The notes beneath the pieces are model-generated. The model worked only from the letters and a program-made list of their open reading frames with translations, made no database searches and had not been told where the DNA came from. From the NCBI GenBank assembly GCA_013298185.1, contig JAAFJQ010000110.1, positions 1 through 12,694 of the forward strand: DNA of 12,694 nt. Reading direction: 5' to 3'. The DNA is from Deinococcales bacterium. GTDB lineage: Bacteria > Deinococcota > Deinococci > Deinococcales > JAAFIG01. The position numbers and the translations under genes were made by a program. Below are positions 649 to 12,233 of this stretch, piece by piece (position 1 is the stretch's first letter; each line of letters opens with the position of its first letter).

Positions 649-1746
649 TTATGAACCGCTCAACACGAATTCTCGAGGGTACAAAGTGCTGGCTTCGATA
701 CCCTCGAGCCACATTCGCTTGGTTTTCTGATTCCATGCTCGAGTCAGGTTGGGGATGTTATCCAAAGTCAGATCCGACTCGAGCATCCCAGTTCCAAGGA
801 GTTTTTGTAGCCAAGGGATTTTGTACTCAGCTCCGAATTCCTTAGCCACCACCAGCAAACTCAGACCAATCGGCAGCATATCCTCGAGTTGCCCCGTGAT
901 ATGGATTTGCGCTCCTGAGCAAAGTAAAGCATTGTGTTTTTGATAAGTTGGCGTAAAAAACGTGGGGCGAAAATGCACGCCCTGCAAACCCAATGAATTC
1001 AGTCTCGAGACCAGTTTATGAGCATCCACCTTGGGCGCACCAAAAACCTGAAAGGGGAGAGCTGTACCACGTCCCTCAGACCAATCCGTGCCTTCCACCA
1101 AGCACATGGCAGGGTACAGCAAAGCCGTCTCGAGGGTGGGCATGTTTGGGCTAGGCGCAACCCAAGGCAGTCTATCCTCGAGATCACACTTGATAACCTC
1201 GAGACCATCCCAATCGAGCGACAAGTGAATTGCCATTTCACCATAGGTCAAACCAAAACGCAGTGGCACATCGGCAATACCCACAAACGAAGCGTACTTT
1301 TCCTCGAGCATCGCGCCTTCAATGCGGTTCCCATTGGGGTTCGGGCGATCAAGGATAATCAGTGGAACTTCGGCTGCACGGCAAGCCTCGAGCAGCCGCG
1401 CTAAGCTGGTGAGGTACGTGTAGAAACGCGTGCCAACACTTTGAATATCAAACAAAACGCAACTCAGACCTCTGATTGCTTCGACGACTTCTTCTGGTTT
1501 CTTGTCGTAAAGTGTGACCACAGGCAAACCAGAAGCGGTATCTACAGCCACCTCTGGGGCTTCGCCTTCCTTACCTGAACCATCTATGCCGTGTTCAGGC
1601 GCAAATAACTTCTCGAGCTTCATACCTGCTTTTTGAATCGCCACGGCGGCTGGCGTGAAATCTCGAGTGATGCCAGTGTGGTTGGTGTACAGCGCAGCGC
1701 GTCCAAGGTTTTTTGGGTTGGCAATCAATCGCTCGAGTCCTGTCAT
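649..1746 (-). CDS. DUF1343 family protein (NamZ-like exo-beta-N-acetylmuramidase family)
   Basis: 365-aa ORF. The N-terminus ...GRAALYTNHTGITRD and the internal LILDRPNPNGNRIEG motif are characteristic of DUF1343/NamZ proteins. It carries 14 CTCGAG sites in 1.1 kb, the highest density in the window. Confidence 0.8.
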   Translation of the reverse strand: MTGLERLIANPKNLGRAALYTNHTGITRDFTPAAVAIQKAGMKLEKLFAPEHGIDGSGKEGEAPEVAVDTASGLPVVTLYDKKPEEVVEAIRGLSCVLFDIQSVGTRFYTYLTSLARLLEACRAAEVPLIILDRPNPNGNRIEGAMLEEKYASFVGIADVPLRFGLTYGEMAIHLSLDWDGLEVIKCDLEDRLPWVAPSPNMPTLETALLYPAMCLVEGTDWSEGRGTALPFQVFGAPKVDAHKLVSRLNSLGLQGVHFRPTFFTPTYQKHNALLCSGAQIHITGQLEDMLPIGLSLLVVAKEFGAEYKIPWLQKLLGTGMLESDLTLDNIPNLTRAWNQKTKRMWLEGIEASTLYPREFVLSGS

Positions 1747-1799
1747 TTGGTTTATTCTAGCGGTTTTTGTGTAACCAGAAAATGCGGATTAATTGCAGA

Positions 1800-1973
1800 T
1801 TACTTTTTGCCGTACAATTGCAAACCAACTCGCCGCAAGGGGCAATTGTTGAACTTGCATTTTCTTCCATTGTTTCTGAGGGCGTTCAGTTCTGATTGGT
1901 TAAATCGTTCTTTGCATCGTGGACATTTTGTTTTTGAATCCAGACTAAACCATTCTAAAATTCTTGTCAGCAT
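1800..1973 (-). CDS. Small Cys4 zinc-ribbon protein, copy 1 (57 aa), putative phage-type regulator
   Basis: Below the 60-aa cutoff of the ORF track. ATG at 1973..1971 is preceded by GAGG with a 7-nt spacer (minus-strand gaggtaatccaATG), and the TAA stop is at 1802..1800. Product: MLTRILEWFSLDSKTKCPRCKERFNQSELNALRNNGRKCKFNNCPLRRVGLQLYGKK, with a CxxC-x18-CxxxxC pattern. It is 75 percent identical to the copy at 9378-9557. The differences include multi-nucleotide synonymous changes in this frame (Arg CGA/AGG, Leu CTG/TTA, Arg AGA/CGA). Confidence 0.8.
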   Translation of the reverse strand: MLTRILEWFSLDSKTKCPRCKERFNQSELNALRNNGRKCKFNNCPLRRVGLQLYGKK

Positions 1974-1998
1974 TGGATTACCTCAAGAAGCATTCCAT

Positions 1999-2026
1999 AT
2001 TTTACCAATGTTTTAAGTTTTGTAAA
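1999..2026 (-). promoter_or_regulatory. Predicted sigma70-like promoter for zinc-ribbon gene copy 1
   Basis: The minus strand reads TTTACA, a 16-nt spacer, then TAAAAT (+2026..2021 and +2004..1999), about 25 nt upstream of the ATG at 1973. This is a pattern match only. Confidence 0.35.
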
Positions 2027-2080
2027 GTTTTGAGCATGGAGATGATTCAAAAATCTCCGAATTTGAATTGAGCTAATCTA

Positions 2081-2098
2081 TACTTACGTTATGGTTAA
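2081..2098. repeat. 18-bp exact direct repeat TACTTACGTTATGGTTAA, left copy (candidate recombination core, attL-like)
   Basis: Identical to 9786-9803, and the flanking sequence on both sides is unrelated. It contains the ATG (2091) of the first phage ORF. Confidence 0.6.
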
Positions 2099-2333
2099 GG
2101 TAACAAAGTTTAACGCTCCATGCGTAAAACACGAAAATCTTAACACTTTACGACTTGCAAGTATTGAAACGAAATACAATGTTGAAATTGCTTTTTTTAT
2201 GCTTGCTCCACATGTTCCTGATAGGTTTATTGCCTTTGCATTTTCCAGTAAAGGTAAGTATCTAGTCCGTTCTGAGTCTGCTCGAGTCACTTTAAACCTT
2301 CTTGAATCACTTCTTTTAGGGGTGATTTCGTGA
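2091..2333 (+). CDS. Hypothetical protein (80 aa as integrated); possibly the 3' part of a gene split by integration
   Basis: The ORF has no SD upstream of its ATG, and that ATG lies inside the 18-bp repeat. Its stop overlaps the next start (GTGA at 2330-2333). It is in frame with the 21-codon ORF 9742-9807 across the repeat. Confidence 0.4.
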   Translation: MVKVTKFNAPCVKHENLNTLRLASIETKYNVEIAFFMLAPHVPDRFIAFAFSSKGKYLVRSESARVTLNLLESLLLGVIS

Positions 2334-2560
2334 AGCTACCTTCTTTAGGTCTAAGCAAGAGAAAGACACTCCTTAGCCGAACAGTCGCCCTTAATCGCTC
2401 AATCACAGTGCTTTCCCACTTAGACACATCACTCCTGTCGCAAACCCAAAAGCGAAAAGTATCCAAAAAAATTTCCTACCTTAAAGTAAAATACACTGTT
2501 CTCAACTCTGCTTTCGAACGTTCAAGAACACTTGAAACCCTCACAAAAGGGGTGTTTTGA
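2330..2560 (+). CDS. Hypothetical basic protein (76 aa)
   Basis: GTG start overlaps the upstream stop (GTGA), and its stop overlaps the next ATG (TGATGA). It is rich in K, R, S and T. I recognise no family. Confidence 0.4.
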   Translation: MKLPSLGLSKRKTLLSRTVALNRSITVLSHLDTSLLSQTQKRKVSKKISYLKVKYTVLNSAFERSRTLETLTKGVF

Positions 2561-2730
2561 TGACCTGCAAAGATTACCCACATTACTGCCGTATTGACTT
2601 GGCTTATGAGCGTTTACGCTACTTTCAGCTTAACAATCGTTTACCAAAAGAAACTAATGCTGCTATTACATATAAACTTATTACCCTTCGTTCTGCCATT
2701 GATCTTTTTGATGTATGGAGGAAAAAGTGA
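2560..2730 (+). CDS. Hypothetical protein (56 aa), not in ORF track
   Basis: ATG 2560 overlaps the preceding stop, and the TGA at 2728-2730 overlaps the GTG at 2727 of the Rep gene (GTGA). Product: MTCKDYPHYCRIDLAYERLRYFQLNNRLPKETNAAITYKLITLRSAIDLFDVWRKK. The only support is the chain of coupled starts and stops. Confidence 0.35.
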   Translation: MTCKDYPHYCRIDLAYERLRYFQLNNRLPKETNAAITYKLITLRSAIDLFDVWRKK

Positions 2731-4043
2731 CTCCTGTCACTGTTGGTCTTGGATGGTTACGGTTCACAACTCGAGGTATTCAAAACAACCAGCATATACA
2801 GCAGCTTCTGCAACTTCCCAGCAAACTCGAGTTTACAAAATGCCCCTCGTTGTTCAGGGGTTTTTACCCGTCCAAGGCTGTCGTGTACTTTGAGAGCTAC
2901 ACCATTACCATTGCCACTGACGGACATCGCACATACTGGGACATTCCACAAACCCACTGTCAGCTTCTTGGTGAGGCTGCACTCCGAGAGGTCGCCTTGT
3001 ACGCTCGAGATCGTTCCGCCGCAACATTTGGACGAGTTGACCCATATTTCCACGTTCCTAGAACGTCACTCACAATAAATAAAGTTATGCGCGATACAAA
3101 GCAAGGACGTGTTGTAACTCGCATCCGAGAAATCAAACCTCACCATGACATGGGGCAGCAGACTGGCTTAACCTTCGGCAAGCGTTCAAGTGATTTCTAC
3201 CTCCGAGTGTATGACGGCTATCTCGAGGCGCTTCAAAATAAACGAGACCCAGAGCAAAAAAATGTCATCGTCTTTGAGACAGAATTGAAGCATGACCGCT
3301 CAAACAATTTTGTAAACTATTGGCTCGAGAACGGTAATTTTGTCAAATCTGCTTCTGAGTTTCTTGTCAGCGCTGTTGACTTTCGCGCCAAGGATAACCA
3401 ACGCTCCAACCGCCGCACCCGCCTTTTTTGGTTTGAGTCCATCGTTGGTGGTGCTGCCAAAATCCAACAGCCTAAGAAGCCAGACTTAAAAACATATCTT
3501 GACCGCGCTGTTGATTGGCTGGACACCCAAGTTATGCCCACGCTGGGCGCTGTCGTAGCCCGTTACGGTCACGGCTGGCTGCTCGAGCAGTTGGCGACCA
3601 CCCTCCCCCGCTGGAGCGATAAGCAGTTCATCATATCGGGCAGAAACAAACAGTCTAGCCTGAGCATCAAAGAATACTTCAATGGCTCGAAACGCCAAGA
3701 AAAACACCGCTATGGCTTTGGCTGTGCCTCTGGCGAGTTTAACAGTGACTCACAATCAAAACAGACCTGTGTACCAAGCAACAAACGCATCAGCGGATAC
3801 ACACTTTTTGACAAAACTGGCACAAATTACCGTATCAAAGCCCAAACCCTCCTCCTCGAGACGTTTAAGGACGGGGGGGTATGTATTACCCCCCCTGTCA
3901 TGCCAGACCAAGCCGAAAAACAGCCGTCGTTCACGAGTCAAATTCTTAACACTAAATTTTGGTCAATTGGTTTTCTCCACCAGCTCGAGCTGCTTGAAAT
4001 TCCCAAGAACCAGTTTTTGACCTTGGCATTATCAACAGCTTAG
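2715..4043 (+). CDS. Rolling-circle replication initiation protein, Rep_trans-like (RstA / gII functional analogue)
   Basis: 442-aa ORF. Motifs GLGWLRFT near the N-terminus, FGKRSSDFYLRVYDG and VFETELKHDRS resemble replication initiation factor (Rep_trans) proteins of filamentous phages and RCR plasmids. The true start may be GTG 2727, which has GGAGG 5 nt upstream, rather than ATG 2715. The gene sits first in the phage string. Confidence 0.75.
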   Translation: MEEKVTPVTVGLGWLRFTTRGIQNNQHIQQLLQLPSKLEFTKCPSLFRGFYPSKAVVYFESYTITIATDGHRTYWDIPQTHCQLLGEAALREVALYARDRSAATFGRVDPYFHVPRTSLTINKVMRDTKQGRVVTRIREIKPHHDMGQQTGLTFGKRSSDFYLRVYDGYLEALQNKRDPEQKNVIVFETELKHDRSNNFVNYWLENGNFVKSASEFLVSAVDFRAKDNQRSNRRTRLFWFESIVGGAAKIQQPKKPDLKTYLDRAVDWLDTQVMPTLGAVVARYGHGWLLEQLATTLPRWSDKQFIISGRNKQSSLSIKEYFNGSKRQEKHRYGFGCASGEFNSDSQSKQTCVPSNKRISGYTLFDKTGTNYRIKAQTLLLETFKDGGVCITPPVMPDQAEKQPSFTSQILNTKFWSIGFLHQLELLEIPKNQFLTLALSTA

Positions 4044-4123
4044 TGAGAAATTTCGTAATTTACAAAAAAAACTAACTCAATTATCTTATCTCCAGCTTAA
4101 ACAGCTAAAGGAGATGTGAACGT

Positions 4124-4399
4124 ATGCGTGCAACGTTTCAAGGTACATTGGTTAGGATTTTTCAAAAGGAACAGACTCGAGATGGTGTTAAGTCTGTTAC
4201 ACCCACAGCTGAACTTTTGGTGGTCGGTACTGGCAATGCTTCTGGTAGCGAACTGGTTCAGGCTGCCATTGACCCATCCGCCGACATCGGCAAGTTAAAG
4301 ACAAACCTTGCCTACCAAGTGACGGCTGAGATAAAGGCTTGGGGCATGAATGGGCGCAGTGGTCTCAGCGTCAAAAACGCCACCTTCGCGGGGCTGTAA
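4124..4399 (+). CDS. Candidate ssDNA-binding protein (gV-like by size and position)
   Basis: 91-aa ORF immediately after Rep, with AGGAG upstream. Its size and position match inovirus gV. I cannot verify a diagnostic motif by eye. Confidence 0.45.
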   Translation: MRATFQGTLVRIFQKEQTRDGVKSVTPTAELLVVGTGNASGSELVQAAIDPSADIGKLKTNLAYQVTAEIKAWGMNGRSGLSVKNATFAGL

Positions 4400-4551
4400 T
4401 GTTTTTCAGGGTTCTCATTGGTTTGTGTATTGCCCTCTGGGTGGCAATTGTGGCGCGTGACGGCTACATCAGCCAATTTTCTGCTATGACTGCCATGGGG
4501 ATTGCCATATCCCTTTTGTTTTCACTGCTGAAGCATGGTCATGATGCTTAG
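4399..4551 (+). CDS. Small membrane protein (50 aa, two hydrophobic segments)
   Basis: ATG overlaps the stop of 4124-4399 (TAATG). Product: MFFRVLIGLCIALWVAIVARDGYISQFSAMTAMGIAISLLFSLLKHGHDA. The track ORF 4339-4551 is the same frame with an upstream start inside the previous gene. Confidence 0.5.
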   Translation: MFFRVLIGLCIALWVAIVARDGYISQFSAMTAMGIAISLLFSLLKHGHDA

Positions 4552-4801
4552 GTTGTTTGTCATTTGCATAGTTGCGTTTGGTTCTCTCGCATTCGCACAG
4601 CTACCCGAAACCCCTCAACCTCCTGTTAATTGTCTCACACAGCCCGAGTGTGACTTGTATATTGCCCAGCGCCTGTACGACCTCGAGAACCGAGAACGCA
4701 CTAACCCAGTCTGGTATGGCTCCGATTCTGGCAAATTTGTAGCTGCTATCTTCGTGTTTGCTGTCGGTTTTGCCCTTGGTCGCACAACCGCGTTGTTATG
4801 A
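4535..4801 (+). CDS. Secreted/membrane-anchored small protein (88 aa)
   Basis: N-terminal signal-peptide-like segment (LFVICIVAFGSLAFA/QL) and a C-terminal hydrophobic segment (FVAAIFVFAVGFALG). In-frame alternative ATGs are at 4541 and 4544. Confidence 0.5.
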   Translation: MVMMLRLFVICIVAFGSLAFAQLPETPQPPVNCLTQPECDLYIAQRLYDLENRERTNPVWYGSDSGKFVAAIFVFAVGFALGRTTALL

Positions 4802-4808
4802 GGTTCAA

Positions 4809-4928
4809 ATGATTGAATCTGTTCATAATCTTGTATTAACTACTGTTGGCGTACTCGTTCCCTGCATCATCGCACTTGTGAGTTATGCAGTGATTGCAGC
4901 AACAGCCGATGAGGTTTCGCGTGAATGA
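4809..4928 (+). CDS. Small single-pass membrane protein (39 aa), minor-coat-like (gVII/gIX size class)
   Basis: Not in the ORF track. GAGG lies 5 nt upstream of ATG 4809. Product: MIESVHNLVLTTVGVLVPCIIALVSYAVIAATADEVSRE. Confidence 0.45.
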   Translation: MIESVHNLVLTTVGVLVPCIIALVSYAVIAATADEVSRE

Positions 4929-5031
4929 CCAACAGTTTTTAGCAAGTTTGTTCATTGCTGGTGTGATTTTTGGTGCTATCTCGGGCGCATTGCAAACCAT
5001 TGTTCGTGCTTACAGGGGTCGCCGTGGCTGA
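4921..5031 (+). CDS. Small single-pass membrane protein (36 aa) with basic C-terminus, minor-coat-like
   Basis: Not in the ORF track. GTG start has GAGG 6 nt upstream and overlaps the previous ORF by 8 nt. Product: (M)NDQQFLASLFIAGVIFGAISGALQTIVRAYRGRRG. Confidence 0.4.
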   Translation: MNDQQFLASLFIAGVIFGAISGALQTIVRAYRGRRG

Positions 5032-5161
5032 TATTTGGGATGGTGCTGCTGCACAAATTAGCGCTGGTGCTGTGCCAGTCTTTGCGATCCTCGCCGCTGT
5101 CCTGGTTATTTTCATTGTTTCAATGGTCGTCTGGGCAATCATCAGTAATACCAAGAAATAG
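5024..5161 (+). CDS. Coat-like protein without signal peptide (45 aa; acidic N-terminus, TM, KK tail)
   Basis: Same frame as track ORF 4970-5161. A GTG at 5024, preceded by AGGGG, overlaps the stop of the previous ORF. Product: (M)ADIWDGAAAQISAGAVPVFAILAAVLVIFIVSMVVWAIISNTKK. The layout is like leaderless inovirus coat proteins of the Pf3 type. Confidence 0.45.
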   Translation: MADIWDGAAAQISAGAVPVFAILAAVLVIFIVSMVVWAIISNTKK

Positions 5162-5205
5162 GGTTTTCCGCCCATCGTGGCGTAACCAACAAGGAGGCAA
5201 CTACC

Positions 5206-5433
5206 ATGTTGCAAAAAATTTATAAAAGCCGTCCTGCTCGTCTCGCCCTGACCCTTGCTGTCGTCGCTGCTGCAAACCTTGCACACGCGCAGGCAACACC
5301 ACCAGCAGCGTTTACTGAGACAAGCCTCAGTGGTGTTTTGGCAATCGTTCTCGCGTTTATCGGCGTTGGTGTATCCATCGCCTTGGCGATGACGATTTTC
5401 AAAGTCGGCAAACGCGCTCAGAACAAGGTCTAA
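5206..5433 (+). CDS. Major coat protein candidate (gVIII-like) with signal peptide
   Basis: Strongest SD in the window (AAGGAGG, 8-nt spacer). The signal peptide MLQKIYKSRPARLALTLAVVAAANLAHA is followed by a mature part of about 47 aa. That part has a neutral/acidic N-terminus, the hydrophobic core GVLAIVLAFIGVGVSIALAMTIF and the basic tail KVGKRAQNKV. A hairpin terminator follows directly, as after gVIII in Ff phages. Confidence 0.75.
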   Translation: MLQKIYKSRPARLALTLAVVAAANLAHAQATPPAAFTETSLSGVLAIVLAFIGVGVSIALAMTIFKVGKRAQNKV

Positions 5434-5446
5434 ACAGCCGAGTATT

Positions 5447-5484
5447 CAGACCGCTATCTTTTGTTTAGCGGTCTGATTTCATTT
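5447..5484 (+). terminator. Rho-independent-type terminator after the major coat gene
   Basis: Perfect 10-bp stem CAGACCGCTA/TAGCGGTCTG (5447-5456 and 5466-5475) with a 9-nt loop, followed by the T-rich ATTTCATTT. Confidence 0.6.
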
Positions 5485-5495
5485 AGGGGTGAATT

Positions 5496-5621
5496 ATGGA
5501 ACAAATAAACGGCATGATGTGGATGTTTGCAGTAGCACTTGGTCTTACTGCTGCCGTCATTGTTGGCGGCGTTTCACTTTATTTCTGGCTCAAGAAAAAG
5601 GGAAGAGAGGAGGGCTATTAA
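5496..5621 (+). CDS. Small single-pass membrane protein (41 aa)
   Basis: Not in the ORF track. GGGG lies upstream of ATG 5496. Product: MEQINGMMWMFAVALGLTAAVIVGGVSLYFWLKKKGREEGY. Its stop overlaps the next start (TAATG). Confidence 0.45.
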   Translation: MEQINGMMWMFAVALGLTAAVIVGGVSLYFWLKKKGREEGY

Positions 5622-5752
5622 TGGACCAAATCATTGCTGTCATCATTGACTTAGGTACTAAGGTTGGTCAAGCTCGAGACGCACTCTTTGTTATCCTTGG
5701 TGTGCTGCTCGTCATTGGTGTTACTTGGGCGATTGCCAACAGGGTAAAATAA
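5621..5752 (+). CDS. Small single-pass membrane protein (43 aa), coat-like layout
   Basis: In-frame internal ATG of track ORF 5489-5752, preceded by AGAGGAGG and coupled to the previous stop. Product: MDQIIAVIIDLGTKVGQARDALFVILGVLLVIGVTWAIANRVK. Confidence 0.45.
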   Translation: MDQIIAVIIDLGTKVGQARDALFVILGVLLVIGVTWAIANRVK

Positions 5753-7413
5753 TGAAATACTTTGTTATTCTGGCATTACTTTTATTTTCCTCTGTTCAAG
5801 CTCAAGGTGCTGATTCGTCTTTGTCAAAAGCTGCAATAGGTGTAGGCATCATGAGCGCTGCAACTGGTCAAGCTATGATCCAGACAGGCGCTCAAATTGC
5901 TGTCCAAACTGGCAACCTTGTAAGGTTTGGCGGTCTAGTCACTGTTGCTGCTGGTGCAATCCCTCTAGCTTTAAACTGGTTTTATGATGAACTGAAACGT
6001 CAGACAGGAACTAGCCTTGATGATTGGCACCGTCTTGCCGGTACCCCTTCATATGCAGCATATGCTACAAAATTTTGGTTTCTTTCCGCCCCTTCCTTCT
6101 TCTGGGAAGGTACTCAATATTATGCTTGTTATCAACAGCGGTCGCATGGGCCACAAAAGTCTGGTATGGGTACCGAATCTCGATTTATGGGCAACGGCTT
6201 TACTAGCTCAGGTTGTCCAACTGACTCAGAAGTTGGCTACGATCCAAGTATTTTGGGTAACATTGGCGGGTGTGCTGGTTCTTACACATGGGTCAATTAT
6301 TCAGCATCTGGGACTAATAACTCTGGTCAAACTGTGCAAATATCTTATGCCTTACGGTGTAATGCTTTGGTTCAAATGCCTCTTTTAAACTGGATTGATG
6401 GTAATTACGTTAATCCTGACGGTTCATCAGGAACACCGCACCCTGATGCACTTTCAGCAATTCTGCAACAAATCCTTCCTCAGTGGTTAAACTCCCGCCC
6501 ACTCCCCTTGAGTAGAACACAGTTAGCGCCGTTTGTCACCCTGTCACCAACTCCGAACACAAATCAGTGGTTAGACTCTATTTCAGACAATACTTTAGAC
6601 TCTGATGGTGATGGTTTTACTGACCGCGATGAGTACGATAATAACAGCGATTTAAACAATTCCTCAGTGTTTCCTGTTCGTTGTGGTCAAAATCTTTTTT
6701 CTCCAAATACCAACTGCAACGACACAATAAATCGAGATACCGATGCAGACGGTTTCACCGATGATGAAGAACTTAACCCTCAAAATTATTCCCGCTTACA
6801 ACCTATCCCAAGTAATCCCCAAGACCCCAATAGTAGACCAACACTACGCCCTCTAACAGAAGCTTGCCCTAACCCCACTGACGTTAGAGTTAATGGTCAG
6901 TGCCAGCCACCAGCCCTAACGTGTCAGGCTGGCTTCTCCCTTGTGTCTGGTCGCTGTGTACCTAATGTCTGCCCTGTTGGTCAAAATCTTGAGCGTGGTG
7001 TATGTGTTCCTGATACAACTCCTGACGCTTCTGCAATTAACACACCCTGCGATGCTATGCAAGGTGGCAGTGGCGTAGTTGGCTTTGTTGTTAATTTTTT
7101 TCCAAACCTCATGCACCTGACAAAGTGCCTGTTCATACCAACTGTAGACATTAGTTCCAAAGTCTCCCAACTTCAAGCCCAAACCACTACAAAATTTCCC
7201 TTTTCAATTTCAGCACAGTTAAATTCCGCCTTCAGGTCACCCACCGCAACCGCTTCAGCGTCGCCTCTCCCAGCTCGAGCTGGTGACATTCCTTTGGACT
7301 GGTCGCCCATTGCTCCCTTTCTGCAAATTGCAAAATCTGTTATTGGTACGTTTATTTGGTTTTCCGCTCTTTGGTTTATCGTTCGTAAAATCACGCCACA
7401 GGTGACAGTATGA
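5752..7413 (+). CDS. Adsorption / minor coat protein candidate (gIII-like), 553 aa
   Basis: ATG 5752 overlaps the upstream stop (TAATG); the track start 5725 lies inside the previous ORF. It has a signal peptide (MKYFVILALLLFSSVQA/QG) and two DxDxDGxxDxxE/D motifs (DSDGDGFTDRDEYD, DTDADGFTDDEE). It also has three Cys-pair repeats and a C-terminal hydrophobic anchor (VIGTFIWFSALWFIV). Its position after the coat gene matches gIII. Confidence 0.65.
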   Translation: MKYFVILALLLFSSVQAQGADSSLSKAAIGVGIMSAATGQAMIQTGAQIAVQTGNLVRFGGLVTVAAGAIPLALNWFYDELKRQTGTSLDDWHRLAGTPSYAAYATKFWFLSAPSFFWEGTQYYACYQQRSHGPQKSGMGTESRFMGNGFTSSGCPTDSEVGYDPSILGNIGGCAGSYTWVNYSASGTNNSGQTVQISYALRCNALVQMPLLNWIDGNYVNPDGSSGTPHPDALSAILQQILPQWLNSRPLPLSRTQLAPFVTLSPTPNTNQWLDSISDNTLDSDGDGFTDRDEYDNNSDLNNSSVFPVRCGQNLFSPNTNCNDTINRDTDADGFTDDEELNPQNYSRLQPIPSNPQDPNSRPTLRPLTEACPNPTDVRVNGQCQPPALTCQAGFSLVSGRCVPNVCPVGQNLERGVCVPDTTPDASAINTPCDAMQGGSGVVGFVVNFFPNLMHLTKCLFIPTVDISSKVSQLQAQTTTKFPFSISAQLNSAFRSPTATASASPLPARAGDIPLDWSPIAPFLQIAKSVIGTFIWFSALWFIVRKITPQVTV

Positions 7414-7643
7414 TAACTGATGCTCTCCTTAATGTTCTTTTTTCTGTCCTAGGCGCTGTTATCTCTATCTTCCCAACATACACAATCCCTCAAGGACCCG
7501 GCTTTTCGGCAATAGCTGCTGCTAACATAATTATCCCGCTTGATATATGGTTTTTTTGGCTTGGTGTGACAATTACCTTTACTGGCATTGGTCTGATTTA
7601 TTACGGTGTCCTGCTTATCATTAGGCTTATAAGAGGAGCATGA
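7410..7643 (+). CDS. Polytopic small membrane protein (77 aa), gVI-like by position
   Basis: ATGA overlap with the upstream stop. Two to three hydrophobic segments. It lies between the gIII-like and ATPase genes, as in Ff. Confidence 0.5.
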   Translation: MITDALLNVLFSVLGAVISIFPTYTIPQGPGFSAIAAANIIIPLDIWFFWLGVTITFTGIGLIYYGVLLIIRLIRGA

Positions 7644-7644
7644 A

Positions 7645-8544
7645 ATGACAATCTTTAAAGCGCTTTCCCCTGCGTTGGCGGCACAAAACTACACTTTATC
7701 TCATGATGGTAAACTGCATCTCCTTGAGGCTCGGCGTGGTCGTGGCAAGAGCTACATTTTAGCTGAATGGGCTATGGCTGCCTTTTCTGCTGGCATCCCT
7801 GTTCGCGCAAACTTTGACTTAGATTTATATTGGTTTGCCCTCGAGTTGGTGAAGCAAAAAAAGCATAAGACACTGGTTTCAGCCGTCGACTGGCTGCGTT
7901 CTAACTACAAGCGTATTGACTCTTGGGATGATCTCTTAACCTGCTATGACACATTAGTATTACTTGATGAAGTAAACAGAACTTTTGATTCTCGAGTACG
8001 TGGCAATGCTGGCGCTCCAATGGTTGCACATTCTTGGCTTCAACAGTCGCGCAAGTTGAAAAACACCATGGTGTTCGCTGCTCAGGGTTTTGATTGGCTG
8101 GATGTTCGCTTGCGTCAGCTCTTCGATATGCTTTGGCGTGTAAAACGTGTTGATGTGCCTCGTACTCGAGTACCTGATACTTTTATCGCCTATGGCTCTG
8201 ACCCTTGGTCATCTGGCTTAGACTCTGATGCTGTTAGGCGTTGTGACTATAAATTCAGAGTAAAATTCTCAACCCAACGCTCGCGGCGATACAATACTTT
8301 TGAGATTATAAAGTCTCTTGTTGGTGAGCCGTCTTTCTCAAATATTCAGGATGTTATCCAGTCTCTTATTGATGCTCGACTTTGTCGGTATGCCACTTAC
8401 AAGCCAACCCCTGATACCATCCCACTCGTGGACAAAATTGCTAGGCTCGAGCCTGCTGAAAATTACTCCCATCGTGGCGCGTTTGACTATGCCTTCTCTT
8501 CTGAATACTCTGCCCCACTGACCCACGCTGGTTCAGAGTTCTAA
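7645..8544 (+). CDS. Zot / pI-like morphogenesis ATPase (P-loop NTPase)
   Basis: AGAGGAG SD lies 6 nt upstream. Walker A ARRGRGKS is near residue 30 and Walker B LVLLDEV is near residue 105. Its position corresponds to gI. I saw no transmembrane segment in the 299 aa. Confidence 0.65.
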   Translation: MTIFKALSPALAAQNYTLSHDGKLHLLEARRGRGKSYILAEWAMAAFSAGIPVRANFDLDLYWFALELVKQKKHKTLVSAVDWLRSNYKRIDSWDDLLTCYDTLVLLDEVNRTFDSRVRGNAGAPMVAHSWLQQSRKLKNTMVFAAQGFDWLDVRLRQLFDMLWRVKRVDVPRTRVPDTFIAYGSDPWSSGLDSDAVRRCDYKFRVKFSTQRSRRYNTFEIIKSLVGEPSFSNIQDVIQSLIDARLCRYATYKPTPDTIPLVDKIARLEPAENYSHRGAFDYAFSSEYSAPLTHAGSEF

Positions 8545-8563
8545 ACGCAATGCGCCTCGGCGC

Positions 8564-8761
8564 ATGAAGTTAGAACCTGAACCGCGTATAATCTTGCCTA
8601 TGTTATTTTGGATTGGTGCATTTTTTGCAATTTTTTTTGGCTCTCTAATTTTCTTCTCGAGATTCCTCGACTTTATCGCTTTGATGATGCTTGCATTGAC
8701 CCACCTGTTAATTTTCTATTGCGCTATAATGGCAGCGTCAAAACATGATAAGCAGCCGTAA
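8564..8761 (+). CDS. Small 2-TM membrane protein (65 aa), possibly the membrane part of a split pI
   Basis: Two clear hydrophobic helices (ILPMLFWIGAFFAIFFGSLIFF and FIALMMLALTHLLIFYCAIMAA). No SD upstream, and the ATG is embedded in a small GC hairpin (ATGCGCC TC GGCGCAT). Confidence 0.4.
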   Translation: MKLEPEPRIILPMLFWIGAFFAIFFGSLIFFSRFLDFIALMMLALTHLLIFYCAIMAASKHDKQP

Positions 8762-8856
8762 AACCCGCCACACAACGCCACAGACCATGTTTTAACCCAA
8801 GGTATCCTAACACCTAAAACCACTTACTCAAGCCTTACTTTTCATTTCAGAGATAG

Positions 8857-8942
8857 GTTTATTTTATGCGTCTGTCACAACATAAACAAAAAAATAAAGT
8901 TTATTTTAGCAGAAAAATAAAGCATAAAAATACATAAAAATA
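8857..8942. repeat. AT-rich short-repeat block with phased A-tracts (candidate origin / bent DNA)
   Basis: GTTTATTTTA occurs at 8857 and 8899. AAAAATAAAG occurs at 8890 and 8913. CATAAAAATA is tandemly duplicated at 8923-8942. The block lies in the 617-bp non-coding gap 8762-9377. Confidence 0.5.
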
Positions 8943-9284
8943 ACCTACCCCCACAAAATAAAAAATGCAACCCTAAACCTCTGTTGGGTTTTTGCTTTTT
9001 TGCTCGAGGTCTTAGCTTTTGCTCACATTCTCTTGATCTAAGTCTTTATTCTCATTTTCTGACTTTTTTTGCACCTCTGAACTCTTGCGCGTAGTGTAGC
9101 CCCGTAGGTGGCGAAACGTAGCGCGTGACCGTTGCATTGACATCCCTATCGTGTATTTGCACAACGTATTACTACCTTTTTCTGTTTACGTGTATTTTCT
9201 GGTTTTCCGAGTCTGTTTTGACTCTTTAGCGTCATTTTTTAGCAGACGAAACTTTGCCAGACCGGCGGCGAGCTGGCGAGCCGA

Positions 9285-9311
9285 TTACCTCGAGTGTTTT
9301 CCTCGAGGTAA
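9285..9311. repeat. 10-bp inverted repeat built on two CTCGAG sites
   Basis: TTACCTCGAG tgttttc CTCGAGGTAA (9285-9294 and 9302-9311), in non-coding DNA 67 nt downstream of the zinc-ribbon copy 2 stop on the minus strand. Confidence 0.6.
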
Positions 9312-9377
9312 AGGTCTGGGGTTTCAAAGGTTCGGCGCGTTCCTAAATCCTGATCCATTTTCCCTAACAATTCTAAC

Positions 9378-9557
9378 TTATTTCTTTGACTTACTATACA
9401 AATGTAAACCAACACGCCCCATAGGACAATTATTGAATTTGCACTGTCGTCCGTTGTTCCTCAGTGCGCCTAGCTCGGCTTCGTTAAACCGTTCTTTGCA
9501 CCTCGGGCATTTTGTTCTTGAGTCTAAGTTCAACCATTCTAAAATTTTTTGTAGCAT
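9378..9557 (-). CDS. Small Cys4 zinc-ribbon protein, copy 2 (59 aa)
   Basis: Not in the ORF track. ATG at 9557..9555 and TAA stop at 9380..9378. Product: MLQKILEWLNLDSRTKCPRCKERFNEAELGALRNNGRQCKFNNCPMGRVGLHLYSKSKK. It aligns without gaps to copy 1, with all four Cys conserved. The SD is weaker (GGTGAG, 3-nt spacer). Confidence 0.75.
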   Translation of the reverse strand: MLQKILEWLNLDSRTKCPRCKERFNEAELGALRNNGRQCKFNNCPMGRVGLHLYSKSKK

Positions 9558-9581
9558 TTGCTCACCACGCGAAAAAAATCT

Positions 9582-9610
9582 ATGTTACTCTCACAATAAC
9601 AACGTCTCAA
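9582..9610 (-). promoter_or_regulatory. Predicted promoter for zinc-ribbon copy 2, back-to-back with a possible rightward promoter
   Basis: The minus strand reads TTGAGA, a 17-nt spacer, then TAACAT (+9610..9605 and +9587..9582). On the plus strand, TTGAAT (9613-9618), a 17-nt spacer and TAGTTT could drive rightward transcription. These are pattern matches only. Confidence 0.3.
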
Positions 9611-9741
9611 GCGTTGAATTTCTTCACACTTCGGGTTAGTTTTAGTTTGCCCCCGTTGCTGTCGAAGTTGGCGGGGGTCGCTTCATTTCTGTCTCAAGCA
9701 GAAAGAGCAATTTCAAACCCACGTTGTTTTAAGGAGAAACC

Positions 9742-9807
9742 ATGGGCAAGGCAGATATTAGCACACTTTTACCGCGTGAAACACTTACTTACGTTATGGT
9801 TAAATAA
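9742..9807 (+). CDS. 21-codon ORF with strong SD; likely the 5' part of the phage gene split by integration
   Basis: AAGGAG lies 5 nt upstream of ATG 9742. Product: MGKADISTLLPRETLTYVMVK, then stop. Its last codons run through the 18-bp repeat in the same frame as ORF 2091-2333. Confidence 0.4.
   Translation: MGKADISTLLPRETLTYVMVK
9786..9803. repeat. 18-bp exact direct repeat TACTTACGTTATGGTTAA, right copy (attR-like)
   Basis: Identical to 2081-2098, with unrelated flanks on both sides. Confidence 0.6.
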
Positions 9808-9833
9808 GAAATCTATGTTATACTGATTTCAGG

Positions 9834-10388
9834 ATGAGTTTAGAACAAAAATGTAACCACTGCATGAATACGTTCCCAGCCACGACTGAATTTTTTCGAG
9901 CAAGGAGTCGTGGCAGAGGACTTGAGAAGGTTTGTAAGGCATGTTGGCGAGAGAAAATTCGCGCCTATAGGCAAGTTAAATGTCAACATGGTGAACGAGA
10001 AGTGAATCCTCGGAGACAAGAAATCAGAACGTATCTTGATGAGATTAAATTGTCTCGAGGTTGCACCAAATGCGGCTATAAAGAACATCCTGCTGCATTG
10101 GATTTTCATCATCTATCACAACAGGACAAGGTCGCAACCATAGCCTCGCTTTATTCAACTCTAAACCTACAAAAAATCCTAGCCGAAGTTGCAAAGTGTG
10201 AAGTCTTATGTGCCAACTGCCATAGAATTGAAACGTACCATCAAAAGCATCCATTAAAGCCTGAAAAGCCAGTGGAACAAACCGTATTGATACGGGCTTC
10301 ACAGCATTTCAAAAAGCGAAAATCGAGAAAGAATACAAATAACCAAACCAGCCTATTTCAAAATAACATTGGAGACTTAAATCAATGA
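9834..10388 (+). CDS. HNH endonuclease
   Basis: 184-aa ORF with N-terminal Cys pairs (CNHC ... CKAC). It carries the C-terminal signature GCTKCGYKEHPAALDFHHL ... KCEVLCANCHRIETY, typical of phage-associated HNH nucleases. There is no obvious SD, and a TATACT box lies 9 nt upstream of the ATG. Confidence 0.8.
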   Translation: MSLEQKCNHCMNTFPATTEFFRARSRGRGLEKVCKACWREKIRAYRQVKCQHGEREVNPRRQEIRTYLDEIKLSRGCTKCGYKEHPAALDFHHLSQQDKVATIASLYSTLNLQKILAEVAKCEVLCANCHRIETYHQKHPLKPEKPVEQTVLIRASQHFKKRKSRKNTNNQTSLFQNNIGDLNQ

Positions 10389-11437
10389 GCTATGAACTTA
10401 TCCTGTCTAGTAAGTTCCAAGCTCCAGAAAATCGCAAGCGCGAAGCTGTTCGTGCAGCTCACGACCACGACGAGGCAACGCTGCTCGAGTTGTTAAATCA
10501 TTACTTGACATTAAAAAGCTCTCGCAAATCCCAAACCTCAAACGAGACTCGTCTTTTGTACAGTGCAGCCGTCAAACGTTTTCTCGAGTATTGCGCTAAG
10601 AACTCAAATCGTCTCGAAATCACCCGACTCGAGAGTGATGACCTTGAAATGTGGTTGGTTTATTTACAAGCTGAGGGCTTAAAACCTTTGAGTATCACAG
10701 CTTACTTGAATGGAGTGCGTTGCCTGTACCGCGCTCTGATTTGGGCAAAGGCTGCTACCATCAACCCAGCAGCCGAAGTTAAAGCCCCAAGGGATCCCAC
10801 ACCAGCCCATTTGAAAAAATCGGCGCTCTCCCCTGCCCTGTACCGCGAACTTGTATCTGCCCCACTCGAGAAATACGCCCCTGACGACCCGCGCCGAACT
10901 CGAGATGGCTTGCTGATCGCACTTGGCGGCTCAGGCGGTTTGCGAGCTAAGGAAATCATCAGCTTGGATGTCACGGATGTGGAGATCGCCTTAAAGCGGT
11001 TGACAGTTCAAAGTGGTAAAGGCGGAAAGAAACGCATTGTACCCTTATCCAACGAATTACTTTCACTCCTGAAATCTTGGCTCGAGGTTCGGCGCAGTCT
11101 CGAGTTGATGGGTGAAATATCGCCAACCGAGACGGCTTTGATTGTCAGCATCTCGAGAAATGCTTCGCATGGACGGCGCTTAACCACCCACGGTGCAAGG
11201 TTTATTGCCAAGGGGTATTACGTGGCGGCTGGACTTCCCTCTGAAATGTGGGGCTTGCACACGCTGCGGCGCACGGCTGGAACGCACCTGTACAGAGCAA
11301 CCAAGGATTTGCACGTTGTAGCAGATTTGCTGGGACATGCCAGTGTCAATACCTCTGCGATTTATGCCAAGATGGACATGGAAACCCGCCGTGATGCTCT
11401 CGAGAAAATGGAAAAAATGCGCGATGAACTCGAGTAG
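10385..11437 (+). CDS. Tyrosine recombinase / phage integrase (XerC/XerD-like)
   Basis: 350-aa ORF. The start overlaps the HNH stop (ATGA). It has an N-terminal SAM-like core-binding region. The catalytic residues occur in order: GGLRAKE (Arg), GKGGKKR (Lys), HTLRRTAGTH (His-x-x-Arg), LLGHASVNTSAIYAKM (His, Tyr). It carries 10 CTCGAG sites. Confidence 0.9.
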   Translation: MSYELILSSKFQAPENRKREAVRAAHDHDEATLLELLNHYLTLKSSRKSQTSNETRLLYSAAVKRFLEYCAKNSNRLEITRLESDDLEMWLVYLQAEGLKPLSITAYLNGVRCLYRALIWAKAATINPAAEVKAPRDPTPAHLKKSALSPALYRELVSAPLEKYAPDDPRRTRDGLLIALGGSGGLRAKEIISLDVTDVEIALKRLTVQSGKGGKKRIVPLSNELLSLLKSWLEVRRSLELMGEISPTETALIVSISRNASHGRRLTTHGARFIAKGYYVAAGLPSEMWGLHTLRRTAGTHLYRATKDLHVVADLLGHASVNTSAIYAKMDMETRRDALEKMEKMRDELE

Positions 11438-11682
11438 CCAAAAAAACCAGATGTCAAAACCCTCGAGCCAATTTCAAGGCAGCTCCTCGAGGCTTACAGC
11501 GCAAAAAACAAATCCAAGCTGTAATTGACAGAGTAAATCAATCAGTCCAATAATTCCTTCGCCTTTCGTCTTTTCTCTCCCTTCACCCTCGCTTCAAATT
11601 CTCACCAAGCCCACTTCACAGCTCTGCCCCATACTTCATTCATCGCTCGAGACTCCTCCCTCGAGCGTAAGGAGCAAAACGT

Positions 11683-12118: not shown

Positions 12119-12233
12119 CACTCCCCCTCGCTTCGCTCGACCCCTCAAAGAGGGGTGCAAAGAGCCAGTTCAAGTGCCAAGGTTTTTAGTCCCCCTCTTT
12201 GAGGGGGAACGCGAGGCACGAGCGTGGGGAGTG
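12119..12233. repeat. Imperfect long inverted repeat with nested GC palindromes (REP/MITE-like intergenic element)
   Basis: The outer arms are CACTCCCC (12119-12126) and GGGGAGTG (12226-12233). CCCCTCAAAGAGGGG (12141-12155) is mirrored by CCCCCTCTTTGAGGGGG (12191-12207). It lies between the SHOCT gene and the response regulator. Confidence 0.6.

Follow-up and report, generated by a model that had tools for sequence, protein, structure and literature searches.

Integrative mobile elements exploiting Xer (IMEX) integrate at dif; the phage TLCphi, the gonococcal genetic island (GGI) and the element LME-1 have been described as carrying a partial mimic of dif, so that integration yields an intact dif together with a modified one (PMC5357621, PMC9765430). 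Polar G-rich octamers, namely the FtsK-orienting polar sequences (KOPS, GGGNAGGG) and the SpoIIIE recognition sequences (SRS, GAGAAGGG), converge on dif (PMC9764985). For Deinococcota, a 2026 survey could identify neither a canonical dif nor polarised KOPS in Deinococcus radiodurans (PMC13342612), and a 2022 FtsK study considered six candidate tyrosine recombinases, none of which was assigned to dimer resolution (PMC9764985). The phylum is unmentioned in the main text of a 2011 dif census and of a 2017 Xer review, and no description of a gene-adjacent dif/Xer module of Deinococcota was found in the searchable literature; such a module is apparently undescribed. Here we analyse a stretch of 12,694 nucleotides from a Deinococcales bacterium (the window; GCA_013298185.1, contig JAAFJQ010000110.1), which carries a predicted inovirus prophage at 2081-9803 and, to its right, a gene for a Xer-family tyrosine recombinase (xer). 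The phage is probably an IMEX that entered the dif of a single-recombinase, gene-adjacent dif/Xer module conserved across Deinococcota. That it integrated at the own site of the host recombinase is stated with high confidence, while catalysis by this recombinase and the function of the site as dif are proposed with moderate confidence.

The prophage, its att sites and the empty locus

The 18-mer TACTTACGTTATGGTTAA occurs exactly twice in the window, at 2081-2098 and 9786-9803, both copies on the plus strand, and the bracketed unit measures 7,705 bp. A scan of both strands allowing up to three mismatches revealed no further copies, and the number of chance matches obtained with shuffled sequences was 0.00-0.01. 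The flanks of the two copies are unrelated, over about 90 nt on the left and at once on the right. The first-pass annotation of this DNA had reported the two copies and their unrelated flanks and had taken the repeats as attL and attR of a 7.7-kb phage; the former statement was reproduced by the mismatch scan and the shuffles, and the latter gained support from a phage-free sister genome that holds one copy of the site with the same right flank. Two other att configurations were considered and discarded: neither tRNA nor tmRNA genes are present in the window, so a tRNA-linked att is not supported, and a folded attP of the CTX type was rejected since no inverted second core copy was found with up to three mismatches allowed.

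In the sister genome (GCA_031414595.1; loci L005/L010 of the comparison, in which related loci and contigs carry L numbers), whose recombinase is 91% identical to that of the window, namZ is followed by a 114-bp spacer that contains the site and then by the recombinase gene, with neither zinc-ribbon (ZnR) nor HNH genes. The spacer reads ...GGTTTATTCTAGCGG CTTGAGAAGGATAGGGTT ATACTTACGTTAT GGCTAA ATAAGAAATCTAT GATATAAT...; its left end (GGTTTATTCTAGCGG) matches window 1749-1763, and its right part is nearly a perfect match to window 9804-9824. The sisters L007/L012, L024, L076 and L011 show the same layout with a diverged site, some of them with an unrelated open reading frame (ORF) of 181 aa in the slot occupied by HNH in the window. 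Because relatives lack ZnR, HNH and phage genes, none of which was found in about 80 related loci, the segment from about 1764 to 9803 is most simply read as insertion throughout, and HNH as a further, strain-specific one. The first-pass annotation had suggested comparing related loci without the insert, and a phage-free site was indeed found; the zinc-ribbon and HNH genes it expected to see there are absent, and other sisters carry the 181-aa ORF.

Alignment with the sites of the window's clade gives a partition of 13-6-13 into arm, centre and arm. On this partition the 18-mer takes in 12 nt from the left arm and all 6 nt of the centre, and phage and host are identical exactly up to the point where the centre meets the right arm. 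The hybrid site attL (2080-2111, plus strand) consists of a host-type left arm ATACTTACGTTAT (2080-2092), the centre GGTTAA (2093-2098) and a degenerate phage right arm GGTAACAAAGTTT (2099-2111). By comparison, attR (9785-9816, plus strand), which lies beside xer, is nearly intact, with the left arm TTACTTACGTTAT (first nucleotide A to T), the centre GGTTAA (9798-9803) and the host right arm ATAAGAAATCTAT (9804-9816); this right arm and the sequence downstream match the empty site of L005/L010. The host site attB is accordingly reconstructed as ATACTTACGTTAT-GGTTAA-ATAAGAAATCTAT, and attP as TTACTTACGTTAT-GGTTAA-GGTAACAAAGTTT, with a degenerate right arm. Immediately to the right of attR, GTTATACT (9817-9824, plus strand) is a putative -10 box of the xer operon, and its position is kept in relatives as GATATAAT, GCTATAAT or GATATACT.

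Independent Logan assemblies, from different runs of one series, reproduce attR in L001 (SRR9948921) and L003 (SRR9948930) and attL in L004 (SRR9948926), which runs unbroken from namZ through attL into rep. L001 starts exactly at core base 1 and L003 exactly 12 nt 5' of the core. A de Bruijn graph with k=31 underlies the Logan contigs. attR and the empty attB have the same sequence from core base 1 rightward, the preceding base being T and A, respectively, so that in a mixture of the two a unitig should begin at core base 1. Likewise, attR and attP (or a tandem phage-phage junction) have 12 nt + 18 nt = 30 nt in common, ending at the last core base, and a mixture of these would therefore start a host-side unitig 12 nt 5' of the core. 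The ends of L001 and L003 fall on the predicted bases, which lends indirect support, short of proof, to a polymorphism of lysogens and non-lysogens together with a circular or tandem form. The first-pass annotation had named the empty and circular junctions as a check; the contig ends fit both of them, while no contig that spans attB or attP of this strain was recovered. Exact-protein look-ups with NamZ, ZnR1, ZnR2 and HNH for an empty or circular contig returned L001, L003 and L004 only. The core 18-mer had no matches in IMG/VR, and its 10 matches in JGI metagenomes, with unrelated flanks and no homologous proteins, were set aside as chance.

It could be supposed a priori that the 18-mers are not att sites at all and represent a target-site duplication, an artefact of assembly or a conserved operator that the phage has at two places. 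The single copy with the same right flank in the phage-free sister and the reproduction of attL (L004) and of attR (L001, L003) in independent assemblies speak against this; transposon duplications are typically much shorter than 18 bp, and the Pfam scans found no transposase. The empty site refutes this explanation, which we regard as extremely improbable.

The recombinase, its dif-like site and a polar motif

The sole recombinase gene in the window (10385-11437, plus strand) encodes a Xer-family tyrosine recombinase of 350 aa (Pfam Phage_integrase, E 3.7e-29) and begins 582 bp to the right of the right 18-mer copy. The observation of the first-pass annotation that the only recombinase gene lies outside the excisable unit is thus upheld, and action in trans is required. 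Scans of the ORFs in 2081-9803 with Pfam, PHROGs and NCBIfam found no recombinase domain, and the gene does not belong to a phage-encoded integrase module, as it lies beyond attR and the empty site (L005/L010) also has it.

The recombinase gene belongs to the host and to the Xer family and was inherited vertically; it does not encode a phage or island integrase, as shown by the spread of its homologs, its synteny, its Xer matches, its invariant catalytic set and its host-like composition. A search returned 704 homologs at E <= 1e-10, with identities of 85-91% in sister metagenome-assembled genomes (MAGs), 45-53% in Deinococcus spp. and 37-43% in Meiothermus, Calidithermus, Oceanithermus and other Deinococcota. 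The window, a whole MAG contig, belongs to a lineage of low-GC Deinococcales whose relatives come from MAG sets of glacier-fed streams. In L005, L007, D. irradiatisoli (L100) and D. aetherius (L101) hisS and aspS lie near the recombinase gene, and the order namZ-xer is found in L005, L007, L011, L013, L024 and L076. In the window, namZ (649-1746, minus strand), the left neighbour of the site in all close relatives, encodes a predicted exo-beta-N-acetylmuramidase (Pfam NamZ_N 1.9e-54, NamZ_C 2.2e-31). The catalytic residues R187, K212, H292, R295, H318 and Y327 are invariant across 20 sequences, and the best PDB matches are XerD, XerA and XerH, the latter in fifth place. The best NCBIfam models are XerC (142.7 bits; cut-off 335), XerD (122.7; 330) and XerA (113.5; 220), and XerS scores 82.6 (267); the protein stays below all four equivalog cut-offs and represents a distinct Xer-like clade. 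The hexamer CTCGAG has a host-like density at the recombinase gene (7-8.5 per kb, vs 2.7 per kb in the phage).

The CTCGAG palindrome deserves a description of its own. It occurs 58 times in the window vs 2.6 expected (22-fold over-represented); per kb, the host flanks contain 8.5 copies and the phage 2.7, and the ZnR1 segment described below has none. In the comparison loci (L005, L007, L011, L016, L019, L051, L054, L061, L064, L065) it is over-represented 26-29-fold in sister Deinococcales and 6.5-11.5-fold in Thermales, and it is absent or under-represented in the genus Deinococcus (0-0.8-fold). This behaviour suggests a highly iterated palindrome.

The first-pass annotation had placed the integrase within a resident module of the form ZnR1, core, HNH and integrase. 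This order describes what preceded integration in this particular strain, and to that extent the proposal holds; the recombinase, on the other hand, is a core syntenic gene of the phylum, and the sister GCA_031414595.1, with NamZ, site and recombinase in the absence of ZnR and HNH, shows that it is no part of such a module. The same evidence bears on the explanation that ZnR1, core, HNH and integrase together constitute a resident mobile or defective element whose integrase is parasitised by the phage. The pre-integration order of this strain (ZnR1, site, HNH, recombinase) and the foreign composition of ZnR1 and HNH agree with it. However, sisters keep recombinase and site at the same NamZ-flanked position without ZnR or HNH, orthologs with an adjacent site stand in conserved synteny across the phylum, and the host density of CTCGAG is found in the recombinase gene and in neither ZnR1 nor HNH, all of which makes a resident element very unlikely.

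A palindrome with a 6-bp centre is found 5' of the recombinase ortholog in most loci, almost always 6-32 nt from the start codon. It reads ATGTTCCATAA-TTTCAC-TTATGGAACAT in many Deinococcus, TTGCCGCTAA-TGACAC-TTAGCGGCAA in other Deinococcus, ATTTCCCTTAA-GGTAAA-TTAAGGGAAAT in Calidithermus and ATTCCCGTTAA-TATCCC-TTAACAGGAAT in Oceanithermus and DY0809b. At least 9 of 11 arm positions are paired in 46% of the loci vs 5.8% of 160-nt windows drawn at random from these loci, and pairing is perfect (11/11) in L032, L040, L044, L045 and L054. Within 10 kb on either side the dif-like site is single in about 40 loci. In the wider clade of the window the arms are conserved (ATACTTA....., .....TCTAT or GAGTAT) and the centre varies (GGTTAA, GGCTAA, TTTCAG, TTACCG, TTACAC, TTTTAC, TTGTAC, GGACAC). 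Conserved arms around a free centre are the signature of a tyrosine-recombinase core site, since only reaction partners need the same centre; because the site combines conserved arms with a free 6-nt centre, it is interpreted as such a core site. The core is thereby no arbitrary attB and represents one arm plus the centre of the conserved dif-like site of the recombinase itself. A canonical dif of the E. coli type was rejected: TTATGGTTAAAT resembles a XerD arm, and the left half misfits an 11-6-11 XerC/XerD dif, so the 13-6-13 alignment of the clade was preferred.

Some further variation at the site was noted. Relative to xer, the centre is the reverse complement GTGAAA instead of TTTCAC in some Deinococcus (L027, L031 and L046), and the unit of xer plus site is inverted relative to hisS-aspS in D. 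irradiatisoli (L100) vs D. aetherius (L101). From lineage to lineage a different small gene fills the slot between the site and xer, and all of these genes run into the start of xer: a 181-aa orphan (L007/L012, 9459-10004), a small membrane protein (about 57 aa), a mini-ORF of 11 codons or, in the window, HNH; further slot coordinates are about 85-260 nt 5' of xer in L015-L020, 9969-10004 in L010 and 1406-1468 in L076. Coupling of xer to a leader ORF may be conserved.

That another recombinase elsewhere in the genome, a host Xer paralog or that of a helper prophage, catalysed the integration would turn the adjacency of site and gene into a coincidence. The window covers 12.7 kb, with the rest of the genome out of view, and several Deinococcota hold more than one member of the family. 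Against this, the crossover lies in a sequence that co-varies with this gene and always accompanies it, and a 32-bp target would have to occur by chance within 600 bp of a recombinase gene. We consider this possibility quite improbable, and the host recombinase next to the site continues to be the candidate catalyst.

The position and surroundings of the site point in the same direction. In three complete chromosomes xer lies at 50.2% (CP179936.1), 50.6% (AP026560.1) and 52.1% (CP029494.1), and this mid-chromosome location corresponds to the terminus only if the three records begin near oriC, as was assumed. In an unbiased k-mer test of words that point at the site from both flanks, performed on three clades, (A)GGGGAGA(G) was the top-ranked G-rich word in all three: GGGGAGAG in Deinococcus (59 toward and 2 away), AGGGGAG in Thermales (58 and 11) and GGGGAGA in the cold Deinococcales (49 and 0; top of 7,123 7-mers tested). 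When the switch point was moved along the sequence, the optimum of the strand switch fell at an offset of 0 to +500 bp from the site in each clade. Top-strand and bottom-strand counts were 31/1 on the left vs 9/30 on the right in the cold clade (Fisher p 6e-11), 22/1 vs 1/22 in Deinococcus (1e-10) and 25/2 vs 4/22 in Thermales (7e-9), p-values that overstate independence because the tested loci include close relatives; the polarity does recur in distant genera. It is missing from the two additional paralog loci of Meiothermus (L081, L085). The host flanks of the window obey the same polarity, with GGGGAGAG pointing toward the site from the left (1054-1061, plus strand) and from the right (10826-10833, minus strand) and GGGAGAG on the minus strand of the right flank (11575-11581). 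(A)GGGGAGA(G) is proposed as a candidate FtsK-orienting (KOPS-like) sequence of the phylum. Inside the phage there are three copies of the G-rich motif (3608, 6507, 7271), all on the bottom strand.

Several features of a dif/Xer system were encountered together: a complete catalytic set, a two-arm site that fits the expected format (about 28-32 bp with a centre of 6-8 bp), and convergence of a polar motif at a mid-chromosome position. The site could nonetheless be the operator or private attB of a domesticated integrase or an autoregulated gene, in which case the phage would still use the recombinase and the site would not be dif. In favour of this, the palindrome, 6-32 nt from the start codon, and the likely promoter region overlap, the NCBIfam scores are far under the XerC, XerD, XerS and XerA equivalog cut-offs, plasmid copies and paralogs exist, and local GC skew gives no clear signal. 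An operator, however, would not account for why (A)GGGGAGA(G) changes strand exactly at the site in three clades, why xer lies at 50-52% of three complete chromosomes or why the arms are conserved around a free 6-bp centre, and a dif beside the recombinase gene is usual for XerS/difSL (PMC5357621). A function other than dif is, on this balance, unlikely.

Besides the assumption on oriC and the relatedness of the tested loci, several points weigh against the proposal of an IMEX at a gene-adjacent dif. GC skew over 10 kb on each side is mixed in sign and confounded by gene orientation. Some recombinase orthologs reside on plasmids (L035), and extra paralogs in L036, L044, L045, L081 and L085 mean that a single recombinase is not established. 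The arms in the clade of the window are weak palindromes (8/13), and the boundaries of arms and centre were set by alignment, not by footprinting. Full-site and half-site scans found no other occupied site or IMEX in about 40 Deinococcota loci. No contig with attB or attP of this strain was recovered and recombination was not observed; attP and the 98-aa ORF that spans it are reconstructions for a phage with no detectable relatives; and it is ambiguous whether the left flank of attL comes from the host or from an older phage. As an observation related to the paralogs, a second tyrosine recombinase gene lies directly 3' of xer in L036 (11637-12410), L044 (12676-13428) and L045 (11508-12452).

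In the integration model favoured here, attP would mimic one binding arm and the 6-bp centre of a host site of about 32 bp located before the xer operon, and the host recombinase, acting in trans, would exchange strands at the edges of the shared centre. The expected outcome is a nearly intact attR beside xer and a hybrid attL with a degenerate arm on the far side, an asymmetry that would disfavour excision. Newcomers would integrate at the intact copy beside xer, so that older elements would come to lie farther out. ZnR1 would then be the leftover of an earlier related IMEX at the same site, and HNH a separate strain-specific insertion. What the data show is the place of integration, its conservation and terminus-like properties, the lack of a recombinase in the phage and the host origin of xer. 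Host catalysis is suggested by the adjacency and co-conservation of site and gene, and the exact boundaries of arms and centre, as well as a function in dimer resolution, are likewise put forward as likely features of the model. Three marks of an IMEX can be recognised at this locus, namely the lack of a self-encoded recombinase, integration at what computation identifies as the host dif, and an attP that mimics arm and centre and leaves one intact and one modified dif.

Locus history and phage genes

The ZnR1 segment (1764-2061) separates a host TAGCGG from the left flank of the site, which is host-like; it is foreign DNA that no relative has, with a GC content of 0.35 and no CTCGAG. It contains ZnR1 (1800-1973, minus strand), an intact gene for a 57-aa zinc-ribbon protein with its own Shine-Dalgarno sequence (SD) and a promoter-like site (2026 to 1999). 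The phage carries its own 59-aa zinc-ribbon gene, ZnR2 (9378-9557, minus strand), a candidate regulator divergent from the attP-spanning ORF and likewise provided with an SD and a promoter-like site. The two proteins are 77% identical inside a 177-nt DNA repeat that is 75% identical, with a proportion of synonymous differences (pS) of 0.81 (saturated), a proportion of nonsynonymous differences (pN) of 0.11 and a pN/pS of 0.14; such values point to old, separately kept orthologs of two phage lineages and not to a recent duplication. ZnR2 lies at the phage end and ZnR1 at the equivalent position to the left of attL.

The history we lean toward, with some reserve, is that ZnR1 is a remnant: a related phage A would have integrated first, the present phage would have entered the regenerated site beside xer, and most of phage A would have been deleted afterwards together with the original left junction. 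A less probable origin, yet one to be taken seriously, would be that about 300 bp were inserted separately, on the left-hand side of a site that stayed untouched; this is suggested because window 2062-2080 (TTGAGCTAATCTA) resembles host left flanks (CTTGAGGCTCAAAATTA and similar). No family matches of ZnR were found in Pfam, PHROGs or NCBIfam, and its AlphaFold model, with a mean predicted local distance difference test score (pLDDT) of 51.8, is unusable. A repressor is the default guess for its function; a role as Xer-activation or directionality factor is speculative.

HNH (9834-10388, plus strand), a predicted endonuclease gene (phrog_2255, 2.6e-28) with a GC content of about 0.41 and one CTCGAG, is placed between site and xer. 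Its stop codon overlaps the start of xer (ATGA), an arrangement of translational coupling, and relatives lack the gene. In the group of D. marmoris, D. saxicola and D. petrolearius (L030, L034, L037, L038, L040) a gene ending ...CCDRCNRAKWDS..., in which an HNH motif was recognised by eye, lies about 20-200 nt 5' of the dif-like site (about 9750-9930) and stops just short of it, on the side opposite xer; this gene has no detectable homology to the HNH of the window. HNH genes seem to recur beside the dif-like site. In the sister L011, a segment of about 700 bp (8840-9550) with a GlcG/HbpS-like ORF, assigned by eye, is found between namZ and the site, and may be a trace of another past insertion there; the left arm of L011 begins TTACTTAC, as in attR of the window, and not ATACTTAC. 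Farther to the right in the window, a 37-nt imperfect inverted repeat with the GC-rich hairpin cores CCCCTCAAAGAGGGG and CCCCCTCTTTGAGGGGG lies between SHOCT and response-regulator genes (12130-12217).

The reconstructed attP would be spanned by an ORF. Behind AAGGAG, a strong SD, a 22-codon ORF (9742-9809, plus strand) contributes the N-terminal 18 codons and the core and ends with a TAA in the host right arm, and an 80-aa orphan ORF (2091-2333, plus strand), whose start ATG lies inside the left repeat, corresponds to the C-terminal 80 codons. Joined in silico (9742-9803 + 2099-2333), they give a protein of 98 aa, MGKADISTLLPRETLTYVMVKVTKFNAPC.... The geometry given by the first-pass annotation, with an ATG at 9742 behind AAGGAG, 18 codons leading into the repeat and a stop 2 codons past it, was correct, and the 98-codon ORF it derived from joining the copies was recovered by in silico translation. 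Homologs of the 98-aa fusion (word-indexed search) and of the 80-aa form (full HMMER search) were limited to the sequence itself. At attL (2074-2093), the host-derived TA creates TATACT 6 nt 5' of the internal ATG, where the reconstructed attP reads CTTACT. A -10 box at such a distance is the configuration of leaderless mRNAs, common in Deinococcus, and expression of the 80-aa form from the prophage as a leaderless mRNA can be hypothesized. The regulatory swap upon integration envisaged in the earlier annotation is speculation; to the right of attR, the xer operon still has a -10-like box of its own (9817-9824).

Judged by its genes, the element at 2081-9803 is best described as an inovirus (filamentous ssDNA phage, Tubulavirales). 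It has a pI/Zot-type morphogenesis ATPase, a rolling-circle Rep, a unit of 7,705 bp and structural ORFs that are all on one strand, and coat-like ORFs were recognised by inspection. The scans described for the recombinase domain gave matches for Rep_trans, Zot and one pIII-like protein, and the other ORFs are orphans. Following the 80-aa ORF, two small overlapping orphan ORFs of 76 aa and 57 aa (2330-2730, plus strand) precede rep (2715-4043, plus strand), which encodes the predicted rolling-circle replication initiator (Pfam Rep_trans, E 7.8e-18). A block of small ORFs (4124-5752, plus strand), for which Pfam and PHROGs scans found no family matches, would, according to inovirus gene order, include the gene of a candidate ssDNA-binding protein (4124-4399) along with genes of membrane proteins that resemble coat proteins, such as that of ORF 5206-5433 with a signal peptide, a transmembrane segment and a basic tail. 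Next come a candidate pIII-like adsorption protein of 562 aa (5725-7413, plus strand; phrog_36046, 1.2e-9), also suggested by its position 5' of a pVI-like ORF and Zot, a 77-aa membrane protein that is pVI-like by position (7410-7643, plus strand), and the Zot/pI morphogenesis ATPase (7645-8544, plus strand; Pfam Zot 8.3e-6, 25.8 bits with a cut-off of 20.3; phrog_20922; phrog_1675, "protein I of M13"). A non-coding region (8762-9377), A-rich and with hairpins, is a candidate origin or packaging signal; its A-rich tract lies at about 8860-8960, and a perfect hairpin containing CTCGAG, TACCTCGAG-N7-CTCGAGGTA, at 9287-9311. Rep and Zot had no matches in IMG/VR, and a search of Rep against 5.8 billion proteins returned the protein itself only.

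Comparison with known Xer systems and elements

If the proposal is correct, the prophage marks an unrecognised dif/Xer system of Deinococcota, in which a single recombinase stands behind its own dif on chromosomes and large secondary replicons with (A)GGGGAGA(G) converging on it, and the phage would be the first IMEX of this system; ZnR may act as a repressor and/or, like XafT, as an FtsK-independent factor of Xer activation or directionality, and ZnR1 may be kept for immunity. Taken as a whole, we hold this wider scenario to be a little better than even. Deinococcota are a model for extreme DNA repair and for multipartite, polyploid genomes, and by naming a recombinase family, an adjacent site and a polar motif the prophage renders the dif/Xer/KOPS question of the phylum testable, as LME-1 did for Legionella. 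To the known cases of Xer hijacking by filamentous phages it would also add a new phylum and a dif module that is gene-adjacent and served by a single recombinase.

Among inoviruses, those with their own integrase or with an att beside an integrase gene (survey, PMC6813254) are similar in having direct repeats of at least 10 bp beside a tyrosine recombinase gene; here, in contrast, the recombinase gene is a core gene of the host, not of the phage, and lies beyond the repeats. The locus would be labelled by an automatic pipeline as a canonical att next to an integrase, and such calls in inovirus surveys can conceal the exploitation of a host Xer.

With respect to the host system, XerS/difSL of streptococci and lactococci and XerH/difH of Helicobacter and Campylobacter likewise employ one Xer recombinase and imperfect inverted-repeat arms (PMC1914069, PMC5357621), and in XerS/difSL the site is immediately beside the recombinase gene, forming a single module. 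The recombinase of Deinococcota is, however, no equivalog of these enzymes (XerS 82.6 bits vs 267; XerH only the fifth PDB match), and the centre measures 6 bp vs 11 bp in difSL.

LME-1, which uses XerL/dif of Legionella (PMC9765430), resembles the present element in that a short att is part of an unrecognised dif, served by a single-recombinase Xer at the terminus. The att covers 22 of 29 bp in LME-1 vs 18 of about 32 bp here, and both elements leave one intact and one modified dif. LME-1 differs in being a phage-like dsDNA element and not an inovirus, and xerL was not reported adjacent to dif; its case counts on genetic and biochemical proof, whereas the present one is computational only.

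A close likeness in kind of phage is offered by the Vibrio IMEX phages VGJphi, CTXphi and TLCphi (dif1, XerCD; PMC4246890, PMC5357621), which are likewise filamentous and without an integrase. There too attP mimics one Xer-binding arm plus the dif centre, the other arm being degenerate as in TLCphi and GGI, a usable dif is regenerated so that arrays of elements arise, and a remnant or satellite can lie beside a complete prophage. In the Vibrio system XerC and XerD are encoded elsewhere, whereas here there is apparently one recombinase, with near-palindromic arms and a gene beside the site; the host belongs to Deinococcota, the phage has no sequence relatives, and neither a folded-ssDNA attP nor a XafT-like protein was recognised. 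The mechanism itself is known from these systems, and the Deinococcota case is a variant of it.

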